IMG/VR virus record: IMGVR_UViG_2703718819_000014
Span: 1 to 15,164 of that record
Direction: 5' to 3' (one strand)
Origin: a virus
Lineage: Duplodnaviria; Heunggongvirae; Uroviricota; Caudoviricetes
Length of the DNA: 15,164 nt
The notes under the pieces were generated by a model, which was not told the DNA's origin, did no database searches, and worked only from the letters and a program-made list of their open reading frames with translations. Position numbers and translations under genes: made by a program. Shown one piece after another: positions 7,449 to 15,164 of the stretch (positions are counted from its first letter, which is position 1; each line of letters starts with the position of its first letter).

Positions 7449-7725
7449 TTCTGCAATTCCGGGACGTTACACTGTTCCGGCACCTTATAAAGCGGGTGCC
7501 GGGCGTGGAAACCCGAAATTCAATATAGAGCACAACCGCGCTCATGCGGTTTTTTCGTGTCATGAGCATCGTTACGCCCAAATTATGGTGGGGCGTGCAG
7601 GGCCAACTTCGGTTGGGCCGGGTTCTATGTTGACCGGTATTTCCACCCCTGTACGTCTCACCACCTATATGGTCGTGGAAAGCCTTGGTGGTGAGTTCAT
7701 TGAATTCAACATAGGGGCTGTCACC

Positions 7726-13006: not shown

Positions 13007-13399
13007 ATGCGTGATATTCAGATGGTTCTCGAACGCTGGGGGGCATGGGCGGCAAGTGGTAACGCCGGGGTGGACTATTCTCCGATAGCTGCTGGATTTA
13101 AAGGCCTTTTACCATCCACCGCTAAACCTCGCCCGGCCTGCAGCGATGATGACGGCCTTATCATCGAAAACTGCCTTACGCGCCTGAAGAAGAAAAAACC
13201 GGACGAGTATTCGCTGCTGGTAGCTCATTATCTGCTGCGCATATCAAAAAGGCAGATTGCCAGAACAAGAAAGAAGAGCGAAAAGGCAATACGAATTGAG
13301 ATGCAGATTGCTGAAGGATTTATTGACGGATGTCTGTCGATGCTGGGTGTAAGGCTGGAGATGGACGACTGGCTGCCCAAAAAAGTAAAAAATGATTAG
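13007..13399 (+). CDS. Late-gene antiterminator, Q family (phage-82/P22 gp23 type)
   Basis: 130 aa; N-terminus MRDIQMVLERWGAWAA and ...AAGFKGL...C.DDD...RLKKK.PDEY.LL..YY match the Phage_antitermQ-type pattern; GGAG RBS. Coordinates taken from the ORF track. Confidence 0.75.
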   Translation: MRDIQMVLERWGAWAASGNAGVDYSPIAAGFKGLLPSTAKPRPACSDDDGLIIENCLTRLKKKKPDEYSLLVAHYLLRISKRQIARTRKKSEKAIRIEMQIAEGFIDGCLSMLGVRLEMDDWLPKKVKND

Positions 13400-13459
13400 C
13401 GCGGTCCGCAAAAAGTATGTCAGTATGTTAAGAGTGGTTACTACGCCACACAACTTAAA

Positions 13460-13481
13460 CCCGCCGCCTGGCGGGTTTTTT
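13460..13481 (+). terminator. Intrinsic terminator about 60 nt downstream of Q
   Basis: CCCGCC / GCCT / GGCGGG hairpin followed by TTTTTT; preceded by a CA-rich unstructured tract CGCCACACAACTTAAA. Confidence 0.7.
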
Positions 13482-13600
13482 ATGACTGAAATCGCATCAG
13501 TACAGTAAACGTGCTGGTGGTGAATACCTGTCTTTCAGCTTGCTGGCTTTTTAGACAAGAGTTATTGGTATGTCACGTTAACCGGAAAAGGGAAAAAGAC

Positions 13601-13798
13601 ATGCTAAAACAGCAGGATATGACAGAAACCGCCAGAGTGGTGTTTAATGAATTAAGCGTCACCTACCCGGCGACAGTCGGGGAGATTGCGCAGAATACTT
13701 ACCTTTCACGCGAACGCTGCCAGTTAATACTGACCCAGCTGGTTATGGCGGGTCTGGCAGACTATCAGTTCGGTTGTTACAGACGCCTTCCGCAGTGA
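13601..13798 (+). CDS. Small putative winged-helix DNA-binding protein (65 aa)
   Basis: Internal ATG of track ORF 13511..13798 with AGGGA upstream; size and pattern (VGEIAQNTYLSRERCQLILTQLVMAGL) resemble small PapI/FaeA-type regulators; followed directly by a terminator. Weak assignment. Confidence 0.45.
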   Translation: MLKQQDMTETARVVFNELSVTYPATVGEIAQNTYLSRERCQLILTQLVMAGLADYQFGCYRRLPQ

Positions 13799-13812
13799 AG
13801 GCTTTTTTATTT
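13785..13812 (+). terminator. Intrinsic terminator
   Basis: GCCTTC / CGCAGT / GAAGGC hairpin overlapping the stop of the small ORF, followed by TTTTTTATTT. Confidence 0.65.
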
Positions 13813-13922
13813 GTGGTAAATGGGCGGCTGGTGGGTGTGGTGGTTGTTGCTTTCCCGTTGCTGAAAAAGAAAGCATCAGGCGATTAGCAGGGTATCAGTT
13901 ACCCGTTGAAATTTTTAAATAC

Positions 13923-14152
13923 CTCACAATTCAGGCGGTTGACTGTTGTCTGGTTTGCGGGGAGTTTGTTAAAAGAAACTGGCATGGTGAATCCCCCTGT
14001 GCGGAGGGGCAATCAGCAACTGGTGTTTTGTCACCGACCCTTATCCTTTCTGTGCGGGTTCAGGTGCTGATACTGAACTCACCGGGAGGCACCCGGCACC
14101 ATGCAATGGCACATAGCGCCACTCTCCAGCCCCTCTCCGGAGGGGCTTTTCT
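13923..14152 (+). ncRNA. Candidate structured sRNA module, copy 1 (includes its terminator 14129-14152)
   Basis: Conserved blocks shared with copy 2 at identical spacing: CTCACAATTCAG, TTGACn (+16), TTTGTTAAAA (+42), GCATGGTGAATCCCCCTGnGCGGAGGGGC (+59), CTGAACTCACCGGGAGGCACCCGGCACCATG, then hairpin GCCCCTC/TCCG/GAGGGGC + TTTT. The 5' GCATGGTG can pair with 3' CACCATGC, closing a 123-nt domain. Confidence 0.4.
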
Positions 14153-14341
14153 GTGCCGGATACATCACAGTTTCTGGAACCTTGGGTACTACAGTATCAG
14201 TCAGGGTGCTATATTTTCAGATGTGATGAAAGCCTGTCAGCAGGCAGGGCGTATCGGAAATGACCCAGTAGAGAAAACGTTGACTCAGATACCGGTGCTG
14301 AGTTACCGGGAAACCGGCATCACATGACCGCTATCCTTCCA

Positions 14342-14368
14342 GGCCCATCCGCTCCGGTGGGCCTTTTT
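14342..14368 (+). terminator. Intrinsic terminator
   Basis: GGCCCA / 10-nt loop / TGGGCC hairpin followed by TTTTTA. Confidence 0.55.
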
Positions 14369-14405
14369 ACTGCAGAAAACAGGTTCCCCGTTAAATGCTA
14401 TGTTG

Positions 14406-14640
14406 CTCACAATTCAGTAAGTTGACAGTTGCCTGTCAGACTGGGCATTTGTTAAAAAAATTTCGCATGGTGAATCCCCCTGAGCGGAGGGGCGACTGGT
14501 GACGGTATAATCTCTGATTATCAAAACGAGAATGACGCGGGTTTAGTGGCACCGGGCTGAACTCACCGGGAGGCACCCGGCACCATGTGCATGATGATAC
14601 AGATACACGGCTTTAGCCCCTCTCCGGAGGGGCTTTCTTG
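14406..14640 (+). ncRNA. Candidate structured sRNA module, copy 2 (includes its terminator 14616-14640)
   Basis: Same block order and spacing as copy 1 (blocks at +16, +42, +59); closing helix GCATGGTG ... CACCATGT spans 124 nt (the one change gives a G-U pair); intervening sequence differs from copy 1; terminator hairpin GCCCCTC/TCCG/GAGGGGC followed by a weak U-tract (TTTCTT). Confidence 0.4.
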
Positions 14641-14645
14641 TGGGC

Positions 14646-14672
14646 AAAAAAAAAGCCCGAGTGGGTTCGGGC
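14646..14672 (-). terminator. Intrinsic terminator on the minus strand, back-to-back with the copy-2 terminator
   Basis: On the minus strand: GCCCGA / ACCCAC / TCGGGC hairpin followed by nine T (plus-strand A9 at 14646-14654). Confidence 0.6.
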
Positions 14673-14694
14673 AACAGCATGAGATATACATTTT

Positions 14695-14700
14695 TATAAT
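14695..14700 (+). promoter_or_regulatory. Candidate -10 element (TATAAT) of a late (PR'-like) promoter
   Basis: Perfect TATAAT with AT-rich upstream sequence and no clear -35; about 30 nt upstream of a strong terminator and 155 nt upstream of the esterase start. Confidence 0.35.
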
Positions 14701-14727
14701 CGAATGGATTTTAACCAGAATTCATAA

Positions 14728-14752
14728 GGCTGCGCAACTGCGCGGCCTTTTT
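14728..14752 (+). terminator. Intrinsic terminator (tR'-like)
   Basis: GGCTGCGC / AACT / GCGCGGCC (8 bp with one G-U pair) followed by TTTTT; about 100 nt upstream of the esterase start codon. Confidence 0.65.
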
Positions 14753-14855
14753 CGTATTGCGGGCTGTAGTCTTCCTCCTGCCATTGTCCTGTAACTTCCG
14801 GACTTCAGCCCGTTCCCTCATCTGACTCACAACATTATCCCGACCGGGAGGATTC

Positions 14856-15164
14856 ATGACATTTAAACACTACGATGTGGTCAGGGCGGCGTCGCCGTCA
14901 GACCTTGCGGAGCGACTGACTCAAAAACTGAAGGAGGGGTGGCAGCCATTTGGCAGTCCGGTGGCCATCACGCCCTATACCCTGATGCAGGCCATTGCGG
15001 CGGAAGGTGATGTCACCACACCTGTGGTGGTGAAGCCGTCGGATGGAGAAGGCACAGTTATCAGCACCACCAGCGAACCGGAGTATTACTTTGTTGTTGT
15101 TCTGGCGGGGCAGTCAAACTCAATGTCTTTTGGTGAAGGGCTGCCGCTGCCGGAGACATATGAC
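14856..15164 (+). CDS. NanS-p-like sialate O-acetylesterase (5' partial; gene runs off the window)
   Basis: GGGAGG 5 nt upstream of ATG 14856; open to the window end; N-terminus MTFKHYDVVRAASPSDLAERLTQKLKEGWQPFGSPVAITPYTLMQ matches, from memory, the DUF1737-type N-domain of prophage NanS-p proteins; followed by VVVLAGQSNSMSFGEG, a GQSN esterase-type motif. Not in the ORF track because no stop codon is in the window. Confidence 0.7.
   Translation, partial: MTFKHYDVVRAASPSDLAERLTQKLKEGWQPFGSPVAITPYTLMQAIAAEGDVTTPVVVKPSDGEGTVISTTSEPEYYFVVVLAGQSNSMSFGEGLPLPETYD

Follow-up and report, generated by a model that had tools for sequence, protein, structure and literature searches.

Convergent pairs of sRNAs, lying between moron genes and a conserved ORF downstream of PR', were described in eight Sakai prophages (Tree et al. 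2014, PMC4104026). In the O157 Sakai prophage Sp5 and in phage 933W the order is stx2AB, STnc100 (EcOnc27), AsxR (EcOnc02) on the opposite strand, and the esterase gene (PMC4104026). STnc100, with the aliases EcOnc27 and sRNA103, is an established sRNA which was expressed, verified by Northern blot and bound by Hfq, and 11 copies exist in EDL933, one of them 75 nt downstream of stx2B. The anti-sRNA family of Tree et al. (2014) has members of about 51-60 nt, in which the 3' part is conserved and the 5' 14-18 nt are variable (PMC4104026). Homologues of STnc100 and AsxR were detected as discrete sRNAs in O157 strains (AsxR, PMC4104026).

Two late-promoter cassettes are close to the one discussed here. 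The cassette of phage 21 (Yin et al. 2019; compared here through the annotated record OL657228) is composed of Q21, a direct-repeat Q-binding element, a sigma-dependent pause element and tR', and this single terminator after Q is followed by two tRNAs and then by the lysis genes. For the PR'-tR' StxS cassette of Sp5 and Sp15, the PR' start and the end of the 258-nt StxS_L were mapped in Sp5 by dRNA-seq and Term-seq (Sy et al. 2020, PMC7547250). The Olavesen-type paper comparing pR' regions is silent on individual terminators.

The window is the whole analysed stretch of phage DNA, 15,164 nt long, and the interval under study (13400-14855, about 1.45 kb) makes up 9.6% of its length. The interval is bounded on the left by the Q gene (13007-13399) and on the right by a DUF1737/SASA esterase gene beginning at 14856. 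The following features were recognised, with the terminators numbered T1 to T7:

13007-13399, plus strand: late antiterminator Q gene (130 aa) of the Q21/Q933W family (PF06530, E 2.8e-52, full profile)
13414-13429, plus strand: allele-specific promoter segment with an adjacent 8-bp direct repeat (AGTATGTC / AGTATGTT), candidate Q-binding element
13433-13481, plus strand: putative PR' leader placed by homology, with its start at about 13433, a 5' hairpin (GUGGU..GCCAC) and then T1
13458-13477, plus strand: stem of T1 (dG -14.2 kcal/mol), with a U tract to about 13481
13601-13798, plus strand: 65-aa ORF of a conserved phage family, candidate inserted moron cargo (phrog_331, E 2.8e-37)
13785-13808, plus strand: T2, overlapping the end of the 65-aa ORF; 6-bp stem at 13785-13802 (dG -7.5 kcal/mol, range -7.5 to -8.9), then six T
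13884-13917, plus strand: extra weaker hairpin with a T-rich tail (dG -9.1 to -9.9 kcal/mol, z -2.8)
13953-14158, plus strand: STnc100 copy 1 (RF02076, 141.4 bits, full model 1-206), with T3 at its end
14128-14147, plus strand: stem of T3 (dG -16.7 kcal/mol)
14197-14370, plus strand: third unit, diverged and STnc100/PasD-like (RF02076, 30.1 bits, E 2.8e-4), with T4 at its end
14341-14364, plus strand: stem of T4 (dG -15.7 kcal/mol)
14436-14645, plus strand: STnc100 copy 2 (RF02076, 165.3 bits, full model 1-206), with T5 at its end
14615-14634, plus strand: stem of T5 (dG -16.7 kcal/mol)
14646-14702, minus strand: AsxR-family anti-sRNA gene (RF02703, 63.0 bits, exactly the gathering score of 63)
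14672-14655, minus strand: stem of T6 (dG -9.9 kcal/mol), with a U-run at 14654-14646, ending the anti-sRNA gene
14726-14754, plus strand: T7, the strongest hairpin (stem 14726-14749, dG -17.8 kcal/mol, z -4.2)
14856-15164, plus strand: start of the first late gene, a DUF1737/SASA carbohydrate esterase of NanS-p type (PF08410, E 6.8e-17)

Taken as a whole, the interval is probably a mosaic island, in which moron modules and sRNA genes follow a late-promoter cassette of Q21/Q933W type. Its seven terminators are real, and each of them is the end of a small unit of its own, of kinds already known; four of the seven are the predicted 3' ends of sRNA-family units, namely the two STnc100 copies, the diverged paralogue and the AsxR-type anti-sRNA. 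The organisation itself is already known from Shiga-toxin-type phages of E. coli (Tree et al. 2014; Sy et al. 2020).

The original prediction had placed six plus-strand terminators and one minus-strand terminator between Q and the first late gene, and had proposed terminator-prediction software as a check. A hairpin-plus-T-tract scan with ViennaRNA energies recovered all seven, and a consensus terminator scan recovered six, with terminator-like sites at 13785, 14128, 14341, 14615 and 14726 on the plus strand and at 14672-14655 on the minus strand, where the T-run reached 14646. The site at 13460 was missed by the consensus scan only because an A/T extension of the stem consumed the T tract. 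Two further weaker sites were found by the hairpin scan, one at 13884-13909 on the plus strand and the other being the minus-strand face of the 13460 hairpin. All seven sites have a GC-rich hairpin followed at once by a U tract, which is interrupted in T3 and T5 (UUUUCUGUG and UUUCUUGUG). When the hairpins were folded singly, the z-score ranged from -3.2 to -4.2 in five of those on the plus strand and was -2.2 at 13785 and -1.7 in the minus-strand hairpin. The strong sites of the window were concentrated in the interval, which held nine of 21 sites at dG <= -7, five of six at dG <= -13 and all four at dG <= -15.

The protein encoded by the Q gene also matched phrog_79, and distantly matched the Q21 structures 6p18/6jnx (E 1.4e-7). 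It was 93% identical to the Q of the Stx2 phage ASU11 and 48% identical to that of 933W. An adjacent 8-bp direct repeat begins 15 nt past the Q stop, exactly the offset of QBEu/QBEd in the annotated phage 21 record, and this repeat at 13414-13429 is a candidate Q-binding element. When 22 cassette variants were compared, the promoter segment differed by type and its flanks were conserved; the window-type Q was always paired with AAGTATGTCAGTATGT and the Q933W-type Q with AATCTGCATATCATGA. The repeat overlaps a predicted extended -10, with TG at 13418-19 and CAGTAT at 13421-26. The putative -35 is poor, and the -10 lacks its first T. In phage 21 the repeat is followed by the -10, the start site and the terminator, all within about 90 nt of the Q stop. 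The window resembles phage 21 in its Q family, in the adjacent 8-bp direct repeat at the same offset and in having a terminator within about 90 nt of the Q stop. It differs in that the two Qs are only distantly related, the repeat has another sequence and overlaps the predicted -10, and there is no clear pause element: no convincing -10-like match for a sigma-dependent pause was found in the early transcribed region.

The PR' start probably lies at about 13433, roughly 34 nt past the Q stop, as judged by homology to the mapped Sp5 start. The stretch 13429-13481 was homologous to the TAAGAGTGGTTAC...CCCGC..GCGGG-U7 segment of 933W/Sp5, and the A of TAAGAG was taken as the start from our own arithmetic, which counted back 258 nt and used the reported cleavage between GU and AUU at +173. 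With PR' starting so close to the Q stop, T1 would lie inside the PR' leader, about 26-49 nt into the transcript. The leader with T1 was folded at dG -22 kcal/mol (z -3.9). The cassette shares with that of Sp5/Sp15 (PMC7547250) the initial transcribed region, the first hairpin and U tract, the Pfam family of Q and a PR' start, putative in the window, no more than about 35 nt past the Q stop. In contrast to that cassette, no homologue of the StxS body or of the Sp5 +258 terminator could be detected in the window, and T1 is followed by T2, which lies past an ORF. A degenerate form of the Sp5 +258 terminator was considered at 13530-13555 and rejected, since the local alignment gave only an 11-nt match with a score of 22, while shuffles reached 26.

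Without Q, polymerase starting from PR' would be expected to halt at T1 and release an RNA of about 49 nt, and polymerase leaking past T1 would cross the 65-aa phrog_331 ORF and halt at T2. T1 might be less of a stop than this supposes. The homologous hairpin with U7 in Sp5 lies at +26 to +50, yet the reported PR' product there is 258 nt long and ends at a later terminator (PMC7547250), and at least seven allele-specific promoter types have kept the initial transcribed region with its T1-type hairpin. Since the Sp5 homologue of T1 was evidently bypassed in the uninduced state to yield the 258-nt StxS_L, transcription in the lysogen could effectively stop at T2, with T1 acting as a leaky or regulatory hairpin of the Q-loading region and the phrog_331 ORF being constitutively transcribed from PR'. 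We regard this as an unlikely alternative, though one to be taken seriously, because T1 resembles a canonical strong terminator (8-9 bp GC-rich stem, dG -14, then six U), and on our reading a product of about 50 nt would have escaped detection in the Sp5 study, where the probe was directed at the 3' part of the RNA. A related suggestion also comes from the conservation of T1 combined with the bypass of its Sp5 homologue in the absence of induction, which hint that T1 might be no plain terminator. Both the small 5' hairpin and the T1 hairpin with its U tract are kept across at least seven Q-allele-specific PR' variants. Somewhat speculatively, and with lower probability than the preceding alternative, T1 may be a conserved RNA/DNA element of Q loading, or a tunable attenuator which sets the PR' flow to the first moron gene in the lysogen.

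Upon induction, with T1 read as an ordinary terminator, Q would bind the allele-specific element that immediately precedes the start and engage the paused early elongation complex. The modified polymerase would then be terminator-resistant, pass T1 to T5 and T7, and transcribe the esterase and lysis genes. Such read-through of all plus-strand terminators is expected by homology, and a dependence of the late genes on it would be reasonable given the homology to Sp5/933W.

The first unit past T1 is the 65-aa ORF, annotated in RefSeq as WP_016232130.1 and without a Pfam match. In PhiR5_1 and ASU11 it likewise stood after the same Q, and 933W lacked it. A moron, in the sense of Juhala et al. (2000), is an additional gene that comes with a promoter and a terminator of its own and that only some of the related phages carry. 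The 65-aa ORF has the terminator T2 and no promoter of its own was detected in the consensus scan, so it may be transcribed by leak-through from PR'. T2, the weakest of the seven terminators, was conserved in PhiR5_1 and also, with stem changes, in ASU11. The weaker hairpin at 13884-13917, which had escaped the original prediction, was conserved in PhiR5_1.

Three tandem genes of the STnc100 family follow, ending at T3, T4 and T5, each apparently with its own promoter. Both copies 1 and 2 passed the RF02076 gathering score of 47 bits. They form a direct repeat, with 80% identity over 88 nt and a 31-nt identical core. Their conserved upstream regions begin at 13923 and 14406, respectively, and a TTGAC(T/A)GTTG motif is conserved upstream of both. 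Candidate extended -10 elements were found in copy 1 (TGTTAAAAG at 13967-13975), in copy 2 (TGTTAAAAA at 14450-14458) and in the third unit (TGCTATATT at 14207-14215). The consensus scan found no canonical promoter at any of these units, and the promoters are suggested by the extended -10 motifs only. Since the embedded units have apparent promoters and terminators of their own, they could be expressed in a lysogen independently of Q.

The third unit fell below the RF02076 threshold (30.1 vs 47 bits). When it was aligned with the STnc100 copies and PasD, its closing and inner helices were found to be kept through two-sided changes. It occurred in five phage records and in 38 of 119 viral contigs. 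PasD (bioRxiv 10.64898/2026.05.13.724894) is similar in being sub-threshold for STnc100 (38.3 bits, against 30 for the third unit), in keeping the fold and in lying upstream of an esterase gene. Unlike the window, PasD adjoins a lambda-type Q (PF03589) instead of one of PF06530. The third unit is not PasD itself, since BLAST found no similarity between it and the PasD-bearing phage 2B8 and the two share only their sub-threshold STnc100 scores. Like PasD, the third unit is best called a diverged STnc100 paralogue, and by Rfam's rule it is no member of the family.

On the opposite strand, an anti-sRNA gene of AsxR type ends at T6, apparently with its own promoter as well, and converges on STnc100 copy 2. 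Its assignment to the AsxR family follows from the RF02703 score at the threshold, the variable 5' part and the position convergent with an sRNA at the moron site. Against RF02702 (AgvB) it scored 43.4 bits, below the threshold of 56. Compared with AsxR of 933W, four differences were located in the 5' 18 nt and two in the 3' part. The position of copy 2 relative to AsxR and the esterase gene is that of the 933W STnc100 after stx2B, and in 933W the block of STnc100, AsxR, terminator and esterase gene comes directly after stx2B. The likeness to Sakai Sp5/933W consists of the STnc100/AsxR convergence, an identical terminator before the esterase gene and a site between Q/PR' and this gene. The window differs in having neither stx nor tRNAs (no tRNA gene was found in the window), in carrying the phrog_331 ORF with extra and diverged STnc100 copies instead, in its Q, only 48% identical to Q933W, and in the variant 5' end of the anti-sRNA.

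The claim that the interval corresponds to the moron site of Stx phages was borne out, since ASU11, with the same Q allele, has the same first terminator and small ORF and then a methylase gene, three tRNAs and stx2A. PhiR5_1 has a nearly identical interval without the third unit and STnc100 copy 2, and so two terminators fewer. The modules are separable: two of them are missing from PhiR5_1, and in ASU11 the small ORF is followed by methylase, tRNAs and stx2. Among the 119 viral contigs, the upstream neighbours of STnc100 varied widely (Stx B, methylase, TerB, Q and phrog_331 were included), and the downstream gene was an esterase in 65 of the 81 loci with a downstream ORF.

These comparisons bear on why so many terminators are present. 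The number of terminators appears to reflect the modules accumulated, given the two missing from PhiR5_1 and the varying neighbours of STnc100, and the series is best explained as a side effect of module stacking, in which every module brought a terminator with it. The original prediction had seen in the series the architecture expected if downstream expression depends on Q-mediated read-through. Six plus-strand terminators within 1.45 kb between PR' and the first late gene, a comparable series in the Q-to-esterase stretch of 933W (at least five on the plus strand and one on the minus strand), and the reduction in leaky lysis-gene expression that redundant terminators would bring are all in keeping with an adaptive, purpose-built barrier that keeps late genes tightly Q-dependent. 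But every one of the terminators forms the 3' end of a unit that is mobile by itself, their number differs between nearly identical phages, and in phage 21 one terminator suffices between Q and the lysis genes, which makes such a barrier improbable. Far less probable still is the reading of the STnc100 units as late-promoter cassettes for another Q, giving several Q-loading sites in the interval (compare lambda 6S RNA). Their RNAs of about 175 nt, the terminator and apparent promoter that each possesses, and the conserved upstream motif would fit it, but in 933W STnc100 comes after stx2B, some 2 kb away from the mapped PR', and it travels with the esterase gene rather than with Q. Where the neighbour is Q, the STnc100 core begins about 460 nt past the Q stop, leaving room for an entire PR' cassette. 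For the same reasons of distance from PR', variable upstream neighbours and esterase linkage, STnc100 was rejected as a PR' leader RNA. That the hairpins arose by chance or repetition and have no role in termination has practically no probability left: T3 and T5 are identical copies and therefore not independent observations, but 200 dinucleotide-preserving shuffles of the interval gave a mean of 0.83 sites (sd 0.93, max 4) against nine observed, and 0.06 against five at dG <= -13. Furthermore, conservation of the hairpins in other phages goes along with variable loops, and four of the hairpins are annotated as the 3' ends of curated RNA families. The original interpretation was partly supported. 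Its view that the terminators insulate embedded transcription units was correct, and the reading of the series as a purpose-built cascade gave way to accumulation of modules.

The value of the result lies mainly in annotation. A seemingly "empty" 1.45 kb of an STEC-type prophage is densely packed, with a putative late promoter and leader, one small protein gene, three predicted STnc100-family sRNA genes and one anti-sRNA gene, and added together these units make up the terminator series. None of the RNAs in the interval is annotated in RefSeq, where a doubtful pseudogene is drawn over one of them. The ORFs at 14028-14327 and 14585-14794 were rejected as genes, having no Pfam match, overlapping the sRNA genes and being absent from the RefSeq annotation. 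The current understanding of Q antitermination and of prophage sRNAs is left unchanged. In ASU11, stx2 is driven by the same Q allele, so the putative PR', the candidate Q-binding element and T1 bear on toxin control there. As a separate observation, the original prediction had overlooked that four of the seven terminators are likely sRNA-family 3' ends, and also the position of PR'.

T7 bounds the conserved esterase module on the left and probably catches read-through arriving from upstream. Its hairpin was identical in 933W (L008 6317-6340), where the terminator precedes the esterase gene, and it was kept in PhiR5_1 despite a different upstream sequence. In the RefSeq copy, a 1980-nt gene for 'SASA family carbohydrate esterase' is followed by the holin, lysozyme and lysis protein genes. 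T7 also resembles the PasD terminator of phage 2B8.

The prediction that a series of intrinsic terminators lies between Q and the esterase gene (window 13400-14855) was confirmed by two scans, by enrichment over shuffled sequence and by fold z-scores. The terminators are T1 (13458-13481), T2 (13785), T3 (14128), T4 (14341), T5 (14615) and T7 (14726) on the plus strand and T6 (14672-14646) on the minus strand. A consensus scan recovered five of the six plus-strand sites together with the minus-strand site; the site at 13460 was absent because its T tract is absorbed by an A/T extension of the stem. With stricter criteria and ViennaRNA energies, a second scan returned 7/7 sites and two weaker ones in the interval. 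Covering 9.6% of the window, the interval contained five of the window's six sites with dG <= -13 and all four with dG <= -15. Nine sites were observed against 0.83 in dinucleotide shuffles of the interval, and five strong sites against 0.06. Fold z-scores were -3.2 to -4.2 for five plus-strand hairpins, -2.2 for the one at 13785 and -1.7 for the minus-strand hairpin. One further hairpin, the eighth, is weaker and runs into a T-rich tail (13884-13917, plus strand; dG about -9 to -10, z -2.8). It was located just 5' of the promoter region of the first STnc100 sRNA copy, is kept in PhiR5_1 and could be tied to no unit.

The window was searched with Rfam at gathering thresholds, and then again with a more permissive search.

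Genes in and around the interval (window positions)
13007-13399, Q antiterminator gene (PF06530, E 2.8e-52), left bound of the interval
stop overlapping T2 (13785), plus strand, 65-aa ORF of phrog_331 (E 2.8e-37), annotated in RefSeq
13953-14158, plus strand, STnc100 copy 1 (RF02076), 141 bits, full-length
14197-14370, plus strand, third, diverged STnc100-like unit (permissive search, 30 bits, E 2.8e-4), ending in T4
14436-14645, plus strand, STnc100 copy 2 (RF02076), 165 bits, full-length
14702-14650, minus strand, AsxR anti-sRNA (RF02703), 63.0 bits, exactly at the gathering threshold
14856 (start), DUF1737/SASA esterase gene, right bound of the interval

From these placements T3 and T5 are STnc100 terminators, and T6 is an AsxR-type terminator. 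T7 was identical to the hairpin ahead of the esterase gene in phage 933W, similar to the PasD terminator, and retained in PhiR5_1 despite a different upstream sequence. Genes for holin, lysozyme and lysis protein come after the esterase gene in the closest RefSeq genome.

STnc100 (also EcOnc27 or sRNA103) is a known expressed Hfq-bound sRNA with 11 copies in EDL933, one of them 75 nt 3' of stx2. The third unit, carried by 38 of the 119 viral contigs with an STnc100 core, retained the long closing helix and an inner helix despite changes on both sides, in an alignment with both window copies, the 933W STnc100 and PasD of phage 2B8. PasD itself scored only 38 bits against the STnc100 model. Low scores with kept helices in both agree with the common ancestor recently proposed for PasD and STnc100 (bioRxiv 10.64898/2026.05.13.724894).

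In the annotation of the closest RefSeq genome, a partial minus-strand pseudogene with an internal stop (~13972-14112) lies inside STnc100 copy 1; the pseudogene was probably called in error from protein homology, on top of an RNA gene. A palindrome, TGACAG-TTGC-CTGTCA (14423-14438, plus strand), was found just 5' of the candidate extended -10 of copy 2, and also 5' of STnc100 in 933W (L008 6016-6042), with a less symmetric version at copy 1; the palindrome may serve a dimeric regulator as its operator.

For the late promoter PR', two known layouts were compared. In the annotated record of phage 21, two adjacent 8-bp Q-binding repeats begin 15 nt after the Q stop; the -10, start site, pause element and terminator come next, and the whole layout fits in about 90 nt. 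An adjacent 8-bp repeat (AGTATGTC/AGTATGTT) begins exactly as far from the Q stop in the window, and T1 comes after it. Window 13429-13481 is homologous to the region immediately 3' of Q in 933W/Sp5, and this homology is stronger evidence for placing PR' than the likeness to phage 21. The PR' start site and a 258-nt terminated RNA have been mapped in Sp5 (Sy et al. 2020, PMC7547250). The Sp5 start was located in the Sakai sequence by stepping 258 nt upstream from the second terminator, and cross-checked with the RNase E site (GU|AUU) reported for position +173; both put it at the A of TAAGAG. The window start is thus predicted at about 13433, and T1 would span roughly +26 to +49.

Among 22 distinct PR' cassette variants, the transcribed part and hairpin stem were conserved, and the 14-16 nt just upstream fell into about seven types. 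Window-type Q was always paired with AAGTATGTCAGTATGT, and Q933W-type Q with AATCTGCATATCATGA, which is how an allele-specific Q-binding element would look; Q presumably binds there. At least five more cassette types, with the leader and hairpin shared and the 14-16 nt segment different, were present in viral contigs L036, L084, L092, L099 and L110, each with a TAnnnT hexamer ending 2 nt 5' of TAAGAG, and several with short internal repeats. Known from their promoter segments without their Q genes, they look like further specificity classes of the Q family. In L090 and L107 the ORF ahead of a 933W-type PR' segment is not Q but an unrelated one, about 200 aa long; these look like recombinants in which the promoter was parted from its Q gene.

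In Sp5/933W, too, the mapped PR' transcript has a hairpin with a U7 tract near its start, from about +26 to +50, that looks canonical (L129 644-696; L008 3955-4006). The published Sp5 product of 258 nt ends at a later terminator, and the first hairpin is undiscussed in that paper (Sy et al. 2020, PMC7547250). Evidently the Sp5 homologue of T1 is read through, yielding the 258-nt RNA.

Of 5426 complete E. coli genomes, 15 had the full arrangement at >=80% coverage, with STEC2018-607 the closest (99.9%), and 5187 had parts of it. In PhiR5_1 the interval is the same except that the third unit and STnc100 copy 2 are missing, which agrees with a gain or loss of some 485 bp between the identical STnc100 terminators. 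The correspondence of the interval to the moron (inserted cargo gene) site was directly supported by Stx2 phage ASU11: its Q is 93% identical, T1 and the small ORF come next, and after them a methylase gene, three tRNAs and stx2A. Phage 933W carries, in this order, stx2B, STnc100, AsxR (on the other strand), T7 and esterase, and its Q-to-esterase span holds at least five terminators on the plus strand and one on the minus strand. Across the 119 viral contigs, the nearest ORF 5' of the STnc100 core includes Stx B, methylase, TerB, Q933W-type Q or phrog_331, and the 3' ORF was esterase in 65 of the 81 contigs having one. Morons 3' of a Q-antiterminated PR', then convergent sRNA genes ahead of a conserved phage ORF, were described in Sp3, Sp4, Sp5, Sp9, Sp10, Sp11, Sp15 and Sp17 by Tree et al. 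(2014, PMC4104026), and this is precisely how the interval is organised. In Hamiltonella phage APSE, a Q homologue (about 60% identical) directly adjoins the annotated variable toxin-cassette region, here with CdtB (APSE-7, L005 1495-3360), so the cargo site 3' of Q is shared well beyond E. coli phages.

The terminator cascade could be read as a designed barrier or as the sum of its modules. The former is weakened, since near-identical phages differ in how many terminators they have and phage 21 has just one. The original interpretation of the cascade was partly right, but it overlooked the identity of the elements. All of them are members or close relatives of described families in an arrangement already described. 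The family assignments and homologies are results of the analysis, whereas the start sites, the binding of Q, the efficiency of each terminator and read-through are inferred. On the best reading, PR' would fire constitutively, with transcripts ending at T1, or at T2 where T1 leaks; the sRNA units would be transcribed independently and end at T3-T6, and T7 would catch read-through. Upon induction, Q would load at PR' and take RNA polymerase past every terminator on the plus strand, so that it reaches the esterase and lysis genes.

In the early region, an isrK match (RF01394, 61.6 bits; 7480-7556, plus strand) was directly followed on its 3' side by a C4 antisense RNA match (RF01695, 82.4 bits; 7581-7668, plus strand). 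Together (7480-7668) they are a P1/P7-type c4-like regulatory RNA pair; in the matching genome, RefSeq has a 'hypothetical protein' CDS that overlaps each of the two.
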